DNA of 32,462 bases, from UHGV virus genome UHGV-0221239; one strand, given 5' to 3'. The stretch's first letter is position 1. Every line of letters starts with the position of its first letter. A program made the translations under genes and the position numbers. This DNA comes from a virus. Below are positions 19,843-32,462 of this stretch, one piece after another. Under the pieces are notes generated by a model. It made no database searches, was not told the origin of the DNA, and saw only the letters and a list, made by a program, of their open reading frames with translations.

Positions 19843-20019
19843 TGTTCATTCCACGGACAAAAACAGAGAAAGGAAACGACAGAGGCCAAAAAGCTCGCTT
19901 TCAGCACCTGTCGTTTCCTTTCTTTTCAGAGGGTATTTTAAATAAAAACATTAAGTTACGACGAAGAAGAACGGAAATGCCTTAAACCGGAAAATTTTCA
20001 TAAATAGCGAAAACCCGCG

Positions 20020-24045: not shown

Positions 24046-25143
24046 ATGAAAAAATTAACAGTGGCAATTTCTGCTGTAGCTGCATCAGTACTGATGGCGA
24101 TGTCTGCTCAGGCAGCTGAAATTTATAATAAAGACAGTAACAAGCTGGATCTGTACGGGAAAGTTAATGCTAAGCACTACTTCTCCTCTAATGATGCAGA
24201 TGATGGTGATACTACTTATGCCCGTCTTGGCTTCAAAGGTGAAACCCAAATCAACGATCAACTGACTGGTTTCGGTCAGTGGGAATATGAATTCAAAGGC
24301 AACCGCGCTGAATCTCAAGGTTCCTCCAAAGACAAAACCCGTCTTGCATTTGCAGGCCTGAAATTCGGTGACTACGGCTCAATCGATTACGGCCGTAACT
24401 ACGGTGTAGCATACGACATCGGTGCGTGGACTGACGTTCTGCCAGAATTCGGTGGCGATACCTGGACCCAAACAGATGTGTTCATGACTGGTCGCACCAC
24501 TGGTGTTGCAACCTATCGTAACAACGACTTCTTTGGTCTGGTTGATGGTCTGAACTTTGCTGCTCAGTACCAAGGCAAAAACGATCGTAGCGATTTCGAT
24601 AACTACACTGAAGGTAACGGTGATGGCTTCGGTTTCTCTGCTACCTATGAATACGAAGGATTCGGTATCGGTGCAACTTATGCGAAATCTGATCGTACCG
24701 ACACTCAAGTTAATGCAGGGAAAGTTCTTCCTGAAGTATTTGCTTCCGGTAAAAATGCAGAAGTTTGGGCCGCAGGTCTGAAATATGACGCTAACAACAT
24801 TTACCTGGCCACTACCTATTCTGAAACCCAGAATATGACTGTATTTGCTGATCACTTCGTTGCTAATAAAGCCCAAAACTTCGAAGCTGTTGCACAATAT
24901 CAGTTCGATTTCGGTCTGCGTCCGTCCGTTGCTTACCTGCAATCTAAAGGTAAGGATCTTGGAGTATGGGGCGATCAGGACTTAGTCAAATATGTTGATG
25001 TAGGTGCAACCTATTACTTCAACAAAAATATGTCTACTTTCGTTGATTACAAAATCAACCTGCTTGACAAAAATGACTTCACTAAAGCACTCGGTGTAAG
25101 CACTGATGACATCGTTGCTGTAGGTCTGGTTTACCAGTTCTAA
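24046..25143 (+). CDS. nmpC: Outer-membrane general porin of the OmpC/OmpF/NmpC/Lc family, 365 aa, intact
   Basis: [49 protein letters not shown]...GLVYQF with signal peptide and C-terminal beta-barrel signature ending in F; opposite strand to the flanking Q and lysis genes, as for nmpC in DLP12 and Lc in phage PA-2. Confidence 0.9.
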
Positions 25144-25332: not shown

Positions 25333-25707
25333 TTAATTAGAGTTATTAACAACGATATCCATCTCTAACCGGATATCTAATGCCATTAACATCCCTTCAA
25401 TTATGCCCTCAGCCTTCTGTAACCTTTTCCCGATATAACCATCAGAGCAGCAATGCTTACCTGCCAGTGACATGAATGTCATACCGACTACATAATAATC
25501 TACTAATAAATCGTGCAAATCGCTGTTGTTCTTTTTCAGACGGGCCATGCACCCGCAAATGATCATCGCGTCATCGTCACAACATTGCGGGCGAGATTTT
25601 ACTTTTGAAGGAATTAATCCCTTAAACCAGACCGCTGATTTTGAAGATAATGACTTCAGCGGCAAACGCTCCCTGATGGAGTCTGTCGAAGCGAAGATCA
25701 AAGACAT
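25333..25707 (-). CDS. Q-like late antiterminator (QuuD-like), 124 aa from the first ATG; its first 28 codons lie inside an inverted-repeat copy
   Basis: C-terminal ...[83 protein letters not shown] with Cys clusters; position between the early genes and the porin/lysis block as for quuD. No Shine-Dalgarno precedes the ATG in this orientation. Confidence 0.5.
25624..25697. repeat. Inverted repeat, copy 1 (74 bp perfect; 87 bp with 2 mismatches), partner at 26075-26148
   Basis: The plus-strand sequence aaaccagaccgctgattttgaagataatgacttcagcggcaaacgctccctgatggagtctgtcgaagcgaaga is the exact reverse complement of 26075-26148. Confidence 0.9.
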
Positions 25708-25933
25708 TATGCCAGTGACATTTGAATTTAAATGCGTTCCGTTTGAAGGTCTGAAAGAACGTCCGTTTAAATTACGCCTCAGCATTATCACTGGCGATCG
25801 TCCTGTACTTGTTCTGCGCATTATTCAGCTGGAGGCGGTGCAGGAAGAAATGGCTAACGAATTTCGCGATCTGCTTGTTGAGAAATTCAAAGACAGCAAA
25901 GTAGAAACCTTTATTGGTACTTTCACCGCCTGA
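25624..25933 (+). pseudogene. Displaced 3' portion of the yfdQ-like gene (repeat-encoded residues plus 74 C-terminal codons), inverted relative to its 5' part
   Basis: Plus-strand frame reads [28 protein letters not shown] then [74 protein letters not shown]; the same [24 protein letters not shown] segment ends the minus-strand gene at 26016-26663. Confidence 0.6.
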
Positions 25934-25945
25934 TTTGATTACTGC

Positions 25946-25966
25946 AAATGCCCCTGCGGGGGCATT
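25946..25966 (+). terminator. Terminator-like hairpin after the displaced yfdQ-like 3' end
   Basis: aaatgcccc-tgc-ggggcattt perfect 9-bp stem 13 nt after the stop codon; followed by a GGAG-6nt-ATGATG start context at 26052-26067. Confidence 0.4.
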
Positions 25967-26015
25967 TATGGAAACGTAATTAACTCAATAATCTCCGGAT
26001 GGTGAGGGCTTCCTT

Positions 26016-26663
26016 TTACCAGAATTCAGTGCGGTGCAGCGCAAATAACGTGGAGAACAAAATGATGTCTTTGGTCTTCGCTTCGACAGACTCCATCAGG
26101 GAGCGTTTGCCGCTGAAGTCATTATCTTCAAAATCAGCGGTCTGGTTTGCTTCAATCGTGATTTTACGGACAGCCGCAGCCGCTTTTGTTGCCTGGATAG
26201 CGTCACCATTAGCATCAAAACCCACAAGGTAGTCGGCCCAGTCTTCAATCCATTCTGCCAGTGACTTCTGGGAGTTACGCTCGCTGTTAACAGACAACAG
26301 TGCAGAGAACGGTGCTGTCTTTTTCAGTTTGAGAGTGGCGGTGTTATCTGCGTGACCTGGTTCATCAATAGTACCCAGGTTAAGCACACTGACGGCACGC
26401 ATATTATCAGCATCGATAAAGCAGCGGGTGCCTTCATCTGCAAGATCTTTAGAATAACGGGTAAAGTCATCGATGCTGGCAGTGGAAAGCGCACCACGGA
26501 AACGGAAGCGATTTAAATTAAATTTTTCCAGATCATGAATGCGGAAATTCTCAGGCAATGCTACAGCATCGGCACCAATCTTACTGATAATTTCATTAAC
26601 ACCCTGAGCAGAAATAATAGCATGGATTTGATTAATTGCGGTTGCGTCTAAGTTCTGAGACAT
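26016..26663 (-). pseudogene. yfdQ-like (DUF2303-like) phage gene, 5' part; reading frame leaves the family-like sequence after the inverted repeat and stops 15 codons later
   Basis: [51 protein letters not shown]... with GAGGA Shine-Dalgarno; after ...SVEAKTKDI it reads [15 protein letters not shown], while the plausible continuation is on the other strand at 25698-25933. Confidence 0.6.
26075..26148. repeat. Inverted repeat, copy 2 (partner of 25624-25697)
   Basis: Exact reverse complement of 25624-25697; coordinates cross-checked against the codon positions of both ORFs. Confidence 0.9.
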
Positions 26664-28406: not shown

Positions 28407-29081
28407 TTAGGCTTTGATTTTGTATCTTCTTGGTTTTCCTGAGAAAATCACAGTTCCAATTATAGAGCAATTACCGTTGATCTTAATGTAAGGCTCAGGC
28501 CAGTTTGGGTTTAACGCTTTGAGATAACGCTGTGTCCCATCTTCTATCAACCTTTTGAAGGTGGTTTCACCTGTATCGTGCATCAATGCAATAACGTCGT
28601 CACCGTGGCAGGCAGGTACTTCAGGATCGACAAAAATCATGTCTCCCGGGCGGTACTCATCAATCATTGAATCACCTATCACCCGCAAGATATAAGTCAT
28701 TTCCCCACAGGGTACAGGGCAGGGATACGTTTCTGCTGTGCTCAAATCAACCTCAGAATATCCAACTTCTTTCCATGCTCCGGCCTGTACCCATGATATG
28801 ACAGGGACTAATGTGATTTGTTTATTAGTGATTGAAAAATCAGGTTTTTTTGTGATGTTCGTTGTCTGGTGTTCTTGATCGAGCCATCCGACAGGCAGGT
28901 CGAAACATTTTTCGATGTGTCGTGCCATGTTGTCACCGATATTTTTAGTAGCACCATCTCCCATAAACCTGCTGGTCTGGGTTGGCTCGCGATCAATCAT
29001 AGTGGCAAAGGAAGAATTCCCGCCAACACCATCTCTCAGTTTTCTGGCGTTAGACCGCCGGATGTCATGGATTGTTTTCAT
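28407..29081 (-). CDS. cI: CI-like prophage repressor with C-terminal S24 (LexA-like) peptidase domain, 224 aa
   Basis: ORF MKTIHDIRRSNARKLRDGVGG... with N-terminal HTH and C-terminal ...VISWVQAGAW...LRVIGDSMIDEYRPGDMIFVDPE...GDDVIAL...TTFKRL... autocleavage-domain pattern; divergent from a Cro-like gene across palindromic operators. Confidence 0.85.
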   Translation of the reverse strand: MKTIHDIRRSNARKLRDGVGGNSSFATMIDREPTQTSRFMGDGATKNIGDNMARHIEKCFDLPVGWLDQEHQTTNITKKPDFSITNKQITLVPVISWVQAGAWKEVGYSEVDLSTAETYPCPVPCGEMTYILRVIGDSMIDEYRPGDMIFVDPEVPACHGDDVIALMHDTGETTFKRLIEDGTQRYLKALNPNWPEPYIKINGNCSIIGTVIFSGKPRRYKIKA

Positions 29082-29096
29082 AACGAAATTAAAACC

Positions 29097-29117
29097 CTTG
29101 TACCGTTAAGGTACAAG
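29097..29117. promoter_or_regulatory. Operator palindrome on the repressor-promoter side (CTTGTACC-GTTAA-GGTACAAG)
   Basis: Perfect 8-bp half-sites with TGTAC-N7-GTACA spacing, 16 bp upstream of the cI start codon. Confidence 0.6.
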
Positions 29118-29145
29118 TATCTTGAAGGTTCATTTCAATCATGTA

Positions 29146-29168
29146 ATATGTACACCGGAGGTACATAT
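29146..29168. promoter_or_regulatory. Operator palindrome on the cro-promoter side (ATATGTAC-ACCGGAG-GTACATAT), overlapping a candidate -10
   Basis: Same TGTAC-N7-GTACA geometry; candidate promoter TTGAAG (29122-29127), 16-nt spacer, TAATAT (29144-29149) reading toward cro. Confidence 0.6.
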
Positions 29169-29171
29169 TGT

Positions 29172-29372
29172 ATGAAAGCGTATTGGGACTCTTTAACCAA
29201 AGAACAGCAGGGCGAGTTGGCCGGAAAAGTTGGCTCAACACCTGGCTACTTACGGCTGGTTTTCAATGGCTATAAAAAAGCCAGTTTTGTGCTGGCTAAA
29301 AAACTTGAGCAATGCACGTCAGGTGCAATTACGAAATCTGACTTAAGACCGGATATCTATCCGAAAGATTAG
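29172..29372 (+). CDS. cro: Cro-like small DNA-binding protein, 66 aa
   Basis: Refined [69 protein letters not shown], divergent from cI, GGAGG upstream. The track ORF 28869-29372 begins far upstream inside the operator region. Confidence 0.7.
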
Positions 29373-29508
29373 CAGAACACTTTCAATTTTTAACCACAGA
29401 ACGATGAGGCTAATCGTGGGTATCTGGGGCGACACCGTTGTTGAGTGTGTGCTTAACAAACTCTGCCCGTCGCATACCTACGTAATTTTTAAATATCCGG
29501 AGTAATCC

Positions 29509-30021
29509 ATGCATCGTATAGACACGAAAACCGCGCAGAAGGATAAGTTCGGCGCGGGTAAGAACGGTTTTACCCGTGGTAACCCCCAGACCGGCACACC
29601 TGCCACCGATCTGGATGATGACTACTTTGACATGTTGCAGGAGGAGCTTTGCAGCGTGGTGGAGGCATCCGGTGCCAGCCTGGAGAAGGGGCGGCACGAC
29701 CAGTTGCTTACCGCGCTTCGTGCGCTGCTGTTAAGCCGCAAGAATCCGTTTGGCGATATCAAATCGGATGGCACGGTGAAAACGGCTCTCGAAAACCTTG
29801 GTTTGGGAGAAGGTTCTGCATTACCTGTTGGGGTGCCTGTTCCGTGGCCTTCAGCCACTCCGCCAACAGGCTGGCTGAAATGCAACGGTGCGCCTTTTTC
29901 TGCCGAAGAGTATCCGGAACTGGCAAAAGTTTACCTGACAAATAAATTGCCTGATTTACGCGGTGAGTTAATTATAAACGGTTATGTCTCCAGCTTTTAT
30001 GGCAATGAGTTCGTTATTTAA
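29509..30021 (+). pseudogene. Tail-fibre gene, constant N-terminal part (about 153 codons), terminated 17 codons after the constant/variable junction in this orientation
   Basis: [77 protein letters not shown]...[44 protein letters not shown] then [17 protein letters not shown]; the PWPS...LPDLRGE block resembles the Stf constant/variable junction; GGAG at -7. Confidence 0.7.
29938..29969. repeat. Inverted repeat alpha, copy 1 (32 bp, encodes [10 protein letters not shown] at the tail-fibre junction); partner at 30325-30356
   Basis: acaaataaattgcctgatttacgcggtgagtt is the exact reverse complement of 30325-30356. Confidence 0.9.
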
Positions 30022-30041
30022 GACAACTTTATTCATCAGGC
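29969..30041. repeat. Inverted repeat beta, copy 1 (73 bp; its reverse complement encodes the tfa start [22 protein letters not shown] and the stop of the variable fibre segment); partner at 30357-30429
   Basis: taattataaacggttatgtctccagcttttatggcaatgagttcgttatttaagacaactttattcatcaggc is the exact reverse complement of 30357-30429. Confidence 0.9.
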
Positions 30042-30326
30042 AGCCCTCACGATATAATTAAAGGCAATGTTACGAGGTCGGTTTTCGTTTGCAGTTGGAA
30101 CAACTCTGGAAGCATCGAATGTTACTCGCTTTGCATAACCACCTTTAATTGAATCCGATGAAGCATCTCCGATGACGCTGGTTGTAAAAACGCCAGAATC
30201 AGAAGGATAGGTATTGAACCTGACATCCACTAATGCACCAATTATATTTCGAATGGCATCGCCCTGTGATGAAAGCAAGCTACGGCTAGTATCTATTCCT
30301 CTTCCGTCATCCCAGCCACGAATAAA
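30036..30326 (-). pseudogene. Variable C-terminal tail-fibre segment (about 96 codons), on the opposite strand from its constant part
   Basis: Minus-strand reading continues in frame from alpha copy 2: (LPDLRGE)FIRGWDDGRGIDTSRSLLSSQGDAIRNIIGALVDV...NRPRNIAFNYIVRAA*, a typical tail-fibre C-terminus (lambda Stf ends ...NIAFNYIVRLA as I recall); no ATG of its own (TTG inside alpha in the track). Confidence 0.65.
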
Positions 30327-30356
30327 CTCACCGCGTAAATCAGGCAATTTATTTGT
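30325..30356. repeat. Inverted repeat alpha, copy 2
   Basis: Reverse complement of 29938-29969; a one-base difference immediately outside (29970 / 30324). Confidence 0.9.
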
Positions 30357-30429
30357 GCCTGATGAATAAAGTTGTCTTAAATAACGAACTCATTGCCATA
30401 AAAGCTGGAGACATAACCGTTTATAATTA
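30357..30429. repeat. Inverted repeat beta, copy 2 (contains the tfa start codon at 30362)
   Basis: Reverse complement of 29969-30041. Confidence 0.9.
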
Positions 30430-30970
30430 TAATGGTGAAACGCGGGAATATATTTCCACATCAACAGAATATCTTGCCATTGGTGTAGGCATTCCGGCAT
30501 GTTCCTGTTTAGATGCTCCAGACTCATACAAAACTGGTTATGCAATTTGCCGTTCTGAAGATTTTAACTCATGGGTATATGTGCCAGACCATCGTGGTGA
30601 AATTGTCTATAGCACTGAAACAGGAGAATCAAAAGAAATCACAGCTCCGGGTGATTACCCTGATAATACAACCACTATCGCCCCGTTAACGCCATACGAT
30701 AAATGGGATGGTGAGAAATGGGTGACGGATACCGTGGCACAGCATAGCGCCGCAGTAGATGCAGCAGAAGCACAGCGCCAGTCGCTGATTGATACTGCAA
30801 TGGCCTCCATCAGTCTGATTCAACTGAAATTACAGGCCGGACGGAATCTGACGCAGTCAGAAACCAGCCGACTTAACACGGTGCTGGATTACATTGACGC
30901 GGTAACGGCAACAGATACCAGCACCGCGCCGGATGTCATCTGGCCTGAACTGCCGGAGACTGCGCAATAA
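30362..30970 (+). CDS. tfa: Tail fibre assembly protein (Tfa/U family), 202 aa
   Basis: [33 protein letters not shown]... with C-terminus ...LNTVLDYIDAVTATDTSTAPDVIWPELPETAQ, resembling the conserved Tfa C-terminus (lambda Tfa ...RVDTSTAPDIEWP); the start overlaps the stop of the variable fibre segment (TGATG) when that segment is read from the beta repeat. Confidence 0.8.
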   Translation: MNKVVLNNELIAIKAGDITVYNYNGETREYISTSTEYLAIGVGIPACSCLDAPDSYKTGYAICRSEDFNSWVYVPDHRGEIVYSTETGESKEITAPGDYPDNTTTIAPLTPYDKWDGEKWVTDTVAQHSAAVDAAEAQRQSLIDTAMASISLIQLKLQAGRNLTQSETSRLNTVLDYIDAVTATDTSTAPDVIWPELPETAQ

Positions 30971-31139
30971 ACTCACCATCAATATATAAATCCCCCTGCT
31001 GTGTGTCAGCAGGGCATTCTTTCCATATTAATGATGGATGGAATCTTCCTTCAGGATTAATTTCCGTTATCTCTTCTACTTTATTTTCTTCAATTCTTGC
31101 CCACATATGAACCTCACCAGTAAATATAAACTGCGCCAT
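30936..31139 (-). CDS. Possible second, truncated tail-fibre assembly gene (67 aa), convergent with and overlapping tfa
   Basis: Internal start MAQFIFTGEVHMWARIEENKVEEITEINPEGRFHPSLIWKECPAD... sits 26 nt before the stop of the glycine-rich gene, the usual stf-tfa coupling; weak similarity only. Confidence 0.35.
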   Translation of the reverse strand: MAQFIFTGEVHMWARIEENKVEEITEINPEGRFHPSLIWKECPADTQQGDLYIDGEFIAQSPAVQAR

Positions 31140-31788
31140 CTGCTCCGGCACCCGACTGACCCGTTGATGAATTAGGACATAATCCAGCACCGCCACCTCC
31201 AGGCCCAACTGCTGATACCGCTTTTCCGTTAGCTGTATCTCTGAATGAACCTGCTCCTCCGGGGCCACCACCAGAACCACCATTACCAGCTCCCGATGCG
31301 GCAGACGCAATGGAACCTGGAGAACCTGGCCCAAGCGATGTATTAATTGTTCCCCCAACACCAACTGCGCCTAACCCTCCGGAAGGCTGGCCTCCGCTAT
31401 AGCCTCCGGAAGCTGACATGTAAGTCCCGAAACTGCTCGAGCCACCATTTTTACCGTTTACAGAAATACCAGACACAGGCGCACCACCGGCACCAACCGT
31501 AATCGAAACACTGTTAATACCAGTTAAATCTACCAGTCCCTCAGCAACTCCGCCCCCACCACCTCCTCCGCCACATGTAACGGCTGAAGCGGTTATTGAA
31601 CCTATCCCTCCTGACGCACCGCCACCAATAACTTTGACGTAACATTTTCTTCCTTTGCGCAACTCTTCAGGAACAGTCCAGCTTGTTACTCCAGCCGTTG
31701 TGAAGGCAACCAGATTTCTGAACCCAAATGAGCCTTCTCCCAAACCAACGTTTATGAAAATGCAGAAATAACGAGCAAATGGCATCAT
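31114..31788 (-). CDS. Glycine-rich putative tail-fibre / receptor-binding protein, 224 aa
   Basis: ORF MMPFARYFCIFINVGLGEGSFGFRNLVAFTTAGVTSWTVPEELRKGRKCYVKVIGGGASGG... with long Gly/Ser/Ala-rich tracts; divergent from the invertase start 27 bp away, as stfE is to pinE in e14. Confidence 0.55.
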   Translation of the reverse strand: MMPFARYFCIFINVGLGEGSFGFRNLVAFTTAGVTSWTVPEELRKGRKCYVKVIGGGASGGIGSITASAVTCGGGGGGGGVAEGLVDLTGINSVSITVGAGGAPVSGISVNGKNGGSSSFGTYMSASGGYSGGQPSGGLGAVGVGGTINTSLGPGSPGSIASAASGAGNGGSGGGPGGAGSFRDTANGKAVSAVGPGGGGAGLCPNSSTGQSGAGADGAVYIYW

Positions 31789-31815: not shown

Positions 31816-31923
31816 ATGCTTATTAGCTATGTACGCGTATCAATAAATGACCAGAACACAGATCTACAACGTAATGCGTTGAACTGTGCAGGATGCGAGC
31901 TGATTTTTGAAGACAAAATCTAA
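31816..31923 (+). pseudogene. pin: DNA invertase (Gin/Pin/Hin serine recombinase family), first 35 codons only
   Basis: [35 protein letters not shown] matches the invertase N-terminus (Gin: [34 protein letters not shown]..., from memory), including the catalytic Ser region; a stop follows directly after the inverted repeat. Confidence 0.75.
31835..31916. repeat. Inverted repeat gamma, copy 1 (82 bp perfect; invertase codons 7-34); partner at 32245-32326
   Basis: gcgtatcaataaatgaccagaacacagatctacaacgtaatgcgttgaactgtgcaggatgcgagctgatttttgaagacaa is the exact reverse complement of 32245-32326. Confidence 0.9.
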
Positions 31924-32142
31924 CTTTGCTTAACCTTAGCGTAAACCGTTCCGTTCAGAATGCTGTATTTCTGAAAAAACGTGATGCTCTCATCGTCCAC
32001 ACCAATCTACGACTGAACATACCACTTATACTTAAGGATAAATGGGATGAGAGTGAAATACTGGAGCGAGGTAAAAAGTTGGGGGAAATTGCATTGAAAG
32101 TATGGCCAAAATACGATTAATGCAATTAATAAAATGATTATA

Positions 32143-32166
32143 GCGGCCTTACATTAGTAAGGCCGC
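32143..32166. other. Perfect 9-bp-stem palindrome (gcggcctta-cattag-taaggccgc)
   Basis: Seen directly; overlaps the stop codon of the minus-strand ORF 32154-32426; no adjacent T-run on either strand. Confidence 0.5.
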
Positions 32167-32426
32167 AACTCACTATTAAATCCTTTAATTTGCATCAAGA
32201 ACAGCACTGTCAGCCCTAGGCTCTCGGACTTTGTACCGCTTATCTTGTCTTCAAAAATCAGCTCGCATCCTGCACAGTTCAACGCATTACGTTGTAGATC
32301 TGTGTTCTGGTCATTTATTGATACGCTCGCTTGTTGCCGTTTCCTTACCAGTAGCTGTTCAGGGGTAAGATCGGTTCCAGACAGAACAATTTGGTTCATT
32401 ACCGTAGCATCTGAATTTGTCACCAT
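32154..32426 (-). pseudogene. Chimeric ORF: unrelated N-terminus + repeat-encoded invertase residues 8-34 + ISGTKSE..., then loss of invertase similarity
   Basis: MVTNSDATVMNQIVLSGTDLTPEQLLVRKRQQAS-VSINDQNTDLQRNALNCAGCELIFEDK-ISGTKSESLGLTVLFLMQIKGFNSELRPY*; invertases continue ...RPGLKRAL..., so the gene is degenerate after about residue 45. Confidence 0.5.
32245..32326. repeat. Inverted repeat gamma, copy 2
   Basis: Reverse complement of 31835-31916; boundaries cross-checked against codon positions of ORF 32154-32426. Confidence 0.9.
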
Positions 32427-32462
32427 ATGACCATTTTCGAGAGGCCAACAGGAATACCAACT

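Follow-up and report, generated by a model that had tools for sequence, protein, structure and literature searches.

Interleaved inverted repeats in the tail-fibre arm of an e14-like prophage as probable scars of an inversion with duplicated ends

The tail-fibre locus and its repeats

The DNA analysed here is a 32,462-nucleotide stretch of a virus genome (UHGV-0221239; hereafter, the window), and our subject is its tail-fibre locus, a region that matches the tail-fibre end of the e14-like prophages that many E. coli strains carry integrated beside icd (Table 1). The locus opens with a tail-fibre ORF of composite structure: in its 170-residue product, residues 1-98 make up the constant N-terminus and residues 99-153 the beginning of an StfE-type arm, with most of the Collar domain and with KLPDLRGE as its last residues, after which the protein ends in 17 foreign residues encoded by the tfa start in antisense, just as the initial annotation had described it. 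The C-terminal part of the fibre lies beyond, on the opposite strand, and next comes tfa, the product of which is identical to a protein of E. coli 1190. The rearrangement at this locus truncates the fibre to 170 amino acids and leaves tfa intact yet uncoupled from the fibre gene. Further downstream are a hypothetical-protein ORF, for the 115-residue product of which there is no Pfam match, an alternative fibre arm, and a remnant of the pin invertase gene.

Table 1. Features of the tail-fibre locus and correspondence of window segments to E. coli 1190 (L001)
Feature	Window coordinates	Strand	Description
Segment collinear with L001	29417-29973	+	L001 2998-3554
Truncated tail-fibre ORF	29509-30021	+	170 aa
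Left pix crossover site	29786-29811		CTCTCGAAAACCTTGGTTTGGGAGAA; matches the K-12 e14 stfP site (PMC12529663)
alpha	29938-29969	+	32-bp exact copy, left end of the inverted piece (L001 3519-3550)
Inverted 388-bp piece	29969-30356	-	Reverse complement of L001 3519-3906 (maps to L001 3906-3519)
beta, within the inverted piece	29969-30042		First part of the piece; followed by the remaining fibre C-terminus on the minus strand
Fibre C-terminus ORF	30036-30347	-	...PDLRGEFIRGWDDGRG...NIAFNYIVRAA
alpha', within the inverted piece	30325-30356		Last part of the piece
beta'	30356-30429	+	74-bp copy, right end of the inverted piece, original orientation
Segment collinear with L001	30356-31916	+	L001 3833-5393
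tfa, tail-fibre assembly gene	30362-30970	+	Intact, 202 aa, TfaE-type, Caudo_TAP
Hypothetical-protein ORF	30936-31283	-	115 aa; presumed assembly partner of the glycine-rich arm, from position only
Alternative fibre arm	31114-31788	-	Gly_rich_2 domain (Pfam)
Right pix crossover site	31735-31760		TTCTCCCAAACCAACGTTTATGAAAA; matches the K-12 e14 site beside pinE
pin serine invertase remnant	31816-31923	+	35 codons, Resolvase N-terminus (Pfam)

Two pairs of inverted repeats are interleaved at the point of truncation. A repeat finder called the pairs 29969-30042/30356-30429 (beta; 74 nt, 100% complementary, with the arms 313 nt apart) and 29938-29973/30321-30356 (alpha; 36 nt, 97%). Comparison base by base revealed that alpha is exact over 32 nt (29938-29969/30325-30356), the additional 4 nt of the call being an extension past a mismatch. 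The two repeats adjoin and have one base in common, the T at 29969, so that the order at the locus is alpha, beta, the variable segment on the minus strand, alpha', beta', and tfa. Both pairs are perfect, with spacing between 313 bp (beta) and, at most, 355 bp (alpha). In the entire 32-kb window, no more than four inverted pairs reach a length of 28 nt, which excludes chance as the source of the alpha and beta repeats. This is, apart from one base in the length of beta (given as 73 bp), the interleaved layout reported in the initial annotation, and the coding content assigned there to both repeats is borne out by the ORFs, the start codon of tfa being located inside beta', where the ATG at 30362 overlaps the fibre stop codon (TGA).

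When the sequence between the alpha copies is flipped in silico, an ORF of 249 codons is obtained, in agreement with the expectation of a fibre of about 250 residues; its product is identical in 248 of 249 positions to WP_019843047.1 of E. coli 1190, and the Collar domain occupies residues 108-155 of the restored fibre (Pfam). The interleaved arrangement had also been taken to allow two different inversions, and both can indeed be computed, but the flip between the beta copies leaves the 170-residue product unchanged.

The undisturbed form of this region is found in relatives. In E. coli 1190, ymfQ, the gene for the 249-aa 'phage tail protein', and that for the 202-aa tail-fibre assembly protein lie on one strand and are followed by a hypothetical gene in the opposite orientation, a 48-codon recombinase stub, and a DUF262 gene. 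The glycine-rich arm is unannotated in E. coli 1190 and annotated in sister strains. The homologues are collinear, fibre first and then tfa, in related E. coli prophages such as that of strain 1190, and several E. coli genomes contain the 388-bp piece as one unbroken block with 100% identity. Judged by this alignment, the window is the collinear arrangement in which one 388-bp stretch, which takes in the fibre C-terminus and extends 68 bp into tfa, has been reversed in place, and alpha (32 bp) and beta (74 bp) are its duplicated ends, that is, a-X-b was converted to a-b'-X'-a'-b. The initial annotation allowed that homologues sharing a fixed version of the interleaved layout would point to a fossil rearrangement; what the relatives possess is the undisturbed collinear layout, which is a stronger argument than the one it named.

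We failed to find a second carrier of the layout. Coverage of positions 29880-30480 reaches 80% in none of the 5,426 complete E. coli genomes (0/5,426), the 31-mer spanning the alpha/beta junction has no match in IMG/VR, among the GTDB representatives, or in the JGI metagenomes, the phage records contain no other case of the alpha/beta layout, and exact look-up of the three chimeric ORF products retrieved no record.

The pix-bounded segment

The locus does contain a genuine inversion switch, at a different place. Its sequence features identify it as the 'P segment', invertible by Pin at the pix sites on either side of it, of a cryptic prophage of the e14 type; it carries two alternative fibre arms, each presumably with an assembly gene of its own (for the second arm, the partner is suggested by position only). 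Crossover sites of the Din family measure about 26 bp and consist of a 2-bp core between two imperfect 12-bp half-sites (..AAACC/GGTTT..). A scan of the window for such sites with TTCTCNNAAACCNNGGTTTNNGAGAA, allowing at most 3 mismatches, recovered just the two pix sites of Table 1, where 0 would be expected by chance; if the two are read in one sense, each has AA as its central dinucleotide. Half-sites of the gix/hix/pix type, for which the initial annotation had proposed a search of alpha and beta, did not turn up at the same threshold of at most 3 mismatches in 29938-30429.

The position of the left pix site also relocates the boundary between the constant and variable parts of the fibre. 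Homology to the K-12 constant part stops at 29813, and beyond this point, K-12 stfE and tfaE are matched on the opposite strand; therefore, the true constant part consists of residues 1-98 (...ENLGLGEGS). Alpha lies about 150 bp downstream of the left pix site, at the end of the Collar domain, within the StfE-type variable arm. The assignment of the constant/variable junction to alpha was accordingly mistaken: the junction is the left pix site itself, at the ENLGLGEGS codons. Inversion in silico at the pix cores brings the glycine-rich domain into frame behind residues 1-98, yielding a protein of 307 aa, and in the ancestral orientation, the P segment encodes the 249-aa Collar fibre along with the Caudo_TAP tfa. 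Natural genomes have the segment in either orientation; in strains 1190 and SW4848, for example, where it is 99.7-99.9% identical to the window, it points in opposite directions, and the orientation breakpoints between the two map to window positions 29793 and 31753, exactly at the pix sites. Thus, the segment 29786-31760 displays inverted 26-bp sites, an in-frame swap of fibre arms, and both orientations, as befits a Din-family invertible segment.

One component of the family is missing next to the segment, namely, a functional serine invertase gene, which in this family also houses the enhancer, in its 5' part: 35 codons of the Resolvase N-terminus are all that is left of pin, which the reference strains, too, possess only as a stub, of 48 codons, and which has been further shortened here by the third of the inversion events described below. 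Given that pin is a stub in the related strains as well, any present-day inversion of the segment would require Pin to be supplied in trans. In K-12, PinQ and PinR have been shown to act on e14 in trans, and inversion of the 1,797-bp P segment was mapped to 16-bp repeats (PMC12529663), which are contained in the pix sites of the window (TTGGTTTGGGAGAAGG/CCTTCTCCCAAACCAA).

The closest known system is the e14 P segment of K-12 (stfP-tfaP-tfaE-stfE-pinE; Pin/pix), to which the two 26-bp sites match, in keeping with the earlier attribution of the locus to an e14-type tail-fibre/tfa/pin region. The e14 P segment is itself sister to Mu G/Gin, P1 C/Cin, and Salmonella H/Hin. The DNA of the constant N-terminus is 97.5% identical to that of K-12 e14, the StfE/TfaE-type arm is 88-91% identical, and the pin gene is directly downstream in both. 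The differences are that the second arm is a glycine-rich domain here instead of the K-12 StfP tip, that the pin stub is followed by a DUF262 gene here and by mcrA in K-12, and that the StfE-type arm bears the alpha/beta inversion scar, which K-12 lacks.

Related rearrangements and the origin of alpha and beta

The remaining long inverted repeats of the window mark just two further events of the same type, all within 7 kb. At 25624-26064, 441 bp of yfdQ/yfdR are reversed, with an 84-nt duplication, and the same place is the joint between a lambdoid prophage, broken in the Q gene, and an e14-like early region. At 31916-32326, in an arrangement that is absent from all complete E. coli genomes, the reversed stretch measures 411 bp and takes in the pin stub as well as the DUF262 gene at its 3' end; 82 nt are duplicated at one of its sides, and 13 bp have been lost at the other. 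In addition, about 25.6 kb have been deleted from the e14-like element between ymfT/ymfL and the 3' end of ymfQ (junction at 29420-29422; its 36-mer has no match in the GTDB representatives or the JGI metagenomes), and the fibre gene now starts about 135 bp downstream of a cro-like gene with its stop codon at 29372. The deleted stretch contains baseplate genes in the reference annotation and probably held the remaining virion genes as well. The pieces run + - + + - + - +, the long ones forward and the short ones reversed, and the overlaps at the successive junctions are 3, 0, 3, 1, 1, 1, and 0 nt. The 14 reference breakpoints have no motif in common that would hint at a recombinase or transposase, and there is no IS element in the 25.6-32.4 kb region. 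The first 21 kb of the window, in contrast to this crowded end, follow E. coli PK5074 and L73 in perfect collinearity.

The interpretation we favour, with a probability of roughly 60%, is that a single, non-programmed structural mutation hit an StfE-type Collar fibre arm, and that alpha and beta are its scars rather than recombination sites. The sequence features of an inversion with inverted duplications are in place, namely, the a-X-b topology, the lack of a recombinase site or mobile element, and little homology at the junctions. Template switching by a polymerase appears to be the preferable route since it predicts this topology, whereas the duplications and the lack of IS elements exclude conservative and IS-dependent routes: inversion mediated by an IS finds no such element at any junction, and conservative inversion by Pin at secondary sites would not create duplications. 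Under this scenario, the polymerase, within a replication fork, would first copy a through to its end, then switch to the other strand at a point about 355 bp further on and copy back 388 nt; a second jump forward would then complete the paired template switch, with a and b ending up duplicated. Two pairs of staggered breaks that were filled in and rejoined would produce the same outcome and lead to equal expectations. The two further events of this kind, together with the 25.6-kb deletion in the same 7 kb, suggest that illegitimate rearrangements came in a burst, the prophage now being unable to build a virion.

Both mechanisms have precedents. Staggered-break inversions with the same conversion of a-X-b to a-b'-X'-a'-b, including duplications with protein-coding genes, distinguish Drosophila species (Ranz et al. 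2007, PMC1885836); here, by comparison, the inverted piece is only 388 bp long and bacterial. In E. coli, paired inverted template switches have been documented and share with the present case the embedded inverted segments, the two novel junctions, and the clustering of events (Lin et al. 2011, PMC3161906); the same study gives about 1.5 kb for the dimensions of the E. coli replication fork. The jumps at the events in the window span approximately 310-425 bp. The segments reported in that work, however, are 5-43 kb in size, compared with about 0.4 kb here, and the junctions involve 3-30 bp of microhomology (PMC3161906), whereas the overlaps of 0-3 nt observed here are shorter than that and near the level expected by chance for blunt joining, a point that counts against template switching. 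In the reversed piece of yfdQ/yfdR, a stretch of 68 bp holds four private substitutions, versus three in the 3,361 bp beside it. Template-switch events are known for error-prone synthesis close to the switch points. To our knowledge, E. coli lacks classical end joining. A paralogous prophage as the donor of the variant-rich 438-bp piece (25627-26064) is unsupported, given that no genome matches it above 99.1%.

The perfection of the repeats implies that the event is either very recent or not biological, and three events of 388-441 bp each within 7 kb would be unusual if independent, suggesting one complex event or a technical cause. The analysis covered one sequence, in which a chimera of amplification or assembly might look the same as an event in vivo. 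The technical explanation, namely, that the joins are in vitro chimeras (for example, from strand-displacement amplification) or errors of assembly or scaffolding and are not part of any chromosome, strikes us as unlikely, albeit deserving of serious attention. Chimeras of strand-displacement amplification form by the same template-switch logic; all seven private junctions crowd the last 7 kb, next to 21 kb of undisturbed collinearity; the layout and the junctions are missing from every collection searched; the joins are near-blunt; and the three inverted pieces are alike in size. Moreover, the orientation of the join between the lambdoid Q region and the e14 early genes would, going by the K-12 map positions of att-lambda and icd, imply a chromosomal inversion of several hundred kilobases. 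Against all this, the strict alternation of long forward and short reversed pieces is unlike what randomly mis-oriented contigs produce, overlaps of 32, 74, 82, and 84 nt fit no single k-mer length, rare chimeric reads are normally outvoted in a consensus assembly, and there are no runs of N or adapters at the joins. With this alternation and the unequal overlaps, random mis-orientation of draft contigs, in particular, is unlikely.

A more far-reaching version of the biological reading, which we consider doubtful, is that all seven private junctions between 25.6 and 32.4 kb stem from one multi-template-switch catastrophe, similar to chromoanasynthesis, which stitched a lambdoid prophage to an e14-like one and left alpha/beta as a metastable allele. 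Were this the case, a single catastrophe would have left three inversion-duplication scars of about 0.4 kb each in a bacterial chromosome; the alpha flip would rebuild the fibre ORF, and, by the logic of the layout, inversion followed by deletion would regenerate the ancestral sequence.

A related idea, in our assessment improbable, is that the scar now behaves as an accidental, low-frequency switch through RecA-dependent exchange at alpha or beta. The perfection and close spacing of both pairs would be conducive to exchange, the alpha inversion would restore an ORF nearly identical to that of the reference fibre, and the beta exchange would provide a third isomer; after either flip, one of the pairs should turn direct, and deletion between the direct copies should restore the exact ancestral sequence. 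A length of 32 bp is, however, near the minimum for RecA-mediated exchange, and the productive flip would be rare, whereas the likelier flip, that at beta, leaves the fibre unrestored. Furthermore, the deletion at 29420-29422 removed baseplate genes and, in all probability, head and tail genes too, there is no evident selection for keeping a switch, and no other genome keeps the layout.

The switch interpretation of alpha and beta put forward in the initial annotation, that is, a programmed toggle of the fibre C-terminus by a dedicated recombinase acting on one or both repeats, is rejected as extremely improbable even though this family does swap fibre tips by DNA inversion and the alpha flip would yield a complete fibre: neither repeat contains a pix-like half-site, the repeats are the ends of an ancestrally contiguous 388-bp piece in collinear homologues, the layout is unique among the genomes searched, the same pattern recurs in the unrelated yfdQ/yfdR and pin remnant/DUF262 genes, and the sole nearby invertase gene is a 35-codon stub. 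Conservative site-specific recombination, as carried out by serine invertases, makes no duplications. Neither half-sites, nor a conservative pair, nor a conserved layout was found that would place alpha and beta among the crossover sites of the Din family. The R64 shufflons (Rci/sfx) resemble the locus in having several inverted repeats and alternative inversions of an adhesin C-terminus. Shufflons employ a tyrosine recombinase and 19-bp sfx repeats that are common to all segments, and the window contains neither a tyrosine recombinase gene nor an sfx-like repeat family.

Implications

Taken together, these observations portray a system of a familiar type, the e14 Pin/pix P segment, marked by a mutational scar of a type that is likewise known; only the clustering of the inversion-duplication events is mildly unusual. 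As a switch, alpha/beta would have been a new architecture of fibre variation, but the evidence says otherwise. As a scar, it is a clean, base-resolved case of a bacterial inversion with duplicated ends, a topology that has been described mainly in Drosophila. There is also a caution here for genome scans, in that inverted repeats flanking a fibre tip, even long and perfect ones, can be scars of rearrangement, and the telling test for such repeats is comparison with undisturbed homologues. The genuine switch, for its part, is a P segment without an invertase of its own that is nevertheless found in both orientations in sister strains carrying the pin stub. This pattern fits inversion of the e14 P segment in trans by Pin paralogues that reside in other prophages (PMC12529663).

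Inverted duplications at the prophage joint and in pin

Apart from the inverted piece in the tail-fibre gene, the window holds two further rearrangements of the same type, listed with the other features in the table. The reversed yfdQ/yfdR piece comes with an inverted duplication of 84-87 nt (arms 25624-25710 and 26062-26148) and is also the joint of the lambdoid prophage, which breaks here within its Q (quuD-like) gene, with the e14-like early region; this joint has 0 matches among complete E. coli genomes. Four substitutions (25698, 25718, 25763 and 25765) are packed into 68 bp (25698-25765) of the reversed piece, compared to 3 differences across the adjacent 3,361 bp. Given that the best match to the piece among 5,426 complete E. 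coli genomes reaches only 99.1%, all four are private and, because one of them falls inside an arm, the duplicated arms are not identical. Error-prone synthesis during a template switch could account for such a cluster, as could a technical cause.

At the pin stub, the inverted duplication consists of 82 nt from the pin 5' end, and the right junction is short by 13 bp. The inversion produced a chimeric 90-aa open reading frame (32154-32426, minus strand), and the inverted arrangement is present in 0 of the 5,426 genomes.

Rearrangements, prophage regions and immunity features in the window
Feature	Position	Strand	Details
Lambdoid prophage late, lysis and Q region	1-25626
Porin gene	24046-25143		Within lambdoid prophage region
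Second inversion-with-duplication	25624-26148		e14-like yfdQ/yfdR; reversed 441-bp piece at 25624-26064
LexA-like repressor gene (ymfK-like)	28407-29081	-
15-nt palindrome pair	29139-29153 / 29161-29175		Between LexA-like repressor gene and cro-like gene
Deletion junction	29417-29422		~25.6 kb missing relative to E. coli 1190; overlap 3 nt
Third event, same type	31835-32326		pin stub and DUF262 gene 3' end; reversed 411-bp piece at 31916-32326

Lambdoid region, immunity region and deletion

In related strains, the lambdoid prophage occupies the bioA/ybhC (att-lambda) site. E. coli PK5074 and L73, with which the lambdoid region is collinear across 21 kb at 99.9% identity, both have an IS3-family insertion that is missing from the window, where it would lie between positions 20000 and 25627. 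On the e14-like side, repeated GGTACA/TGTACC-type elements (29090-29180) between the repressor and cro-like genes, together with the palindrome pair, resemble operator sites of the immunity region. On one side the deletion starts just past the cro-like ymfT (the ymfL start), and on the other it stops at the final 90 bp of ymfQ. With it were lost the prophage genes for the baseplate and, presumably, those for replication, lysis, head and tail; the 36-mer spanning its junction has no match in GTDB representatives or JGI metagenomes.

P segment inversion and the cargo position

The genuine P segment bounded by pix, the Pin crossover sites (29786-31760), lies in opposite orientations in the near-identical prophages of strains 1190 and SW4848 (loci L001 and L006, respectively), in both of which pin is a 48-codon stub. 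That both orientations occur although these strains have only the stub suggests that a Pin paralogue from another part of the genome inverts the segment; trans inversion of the e14 P segment has been reported in K-12 for the paralogues PinQ/PinR (PMC12529663). In this prophage lineage (window 31816-32462; L001 5293-7407), pin is cut off after ~48 codons and is followed by a gene for a 629-aa DUF262-domain protein, whereas e14 of K-12 has mcrA at that position. The position downstream of pin looks like a site at which cargo genes of the restriction or defence type are swapped.
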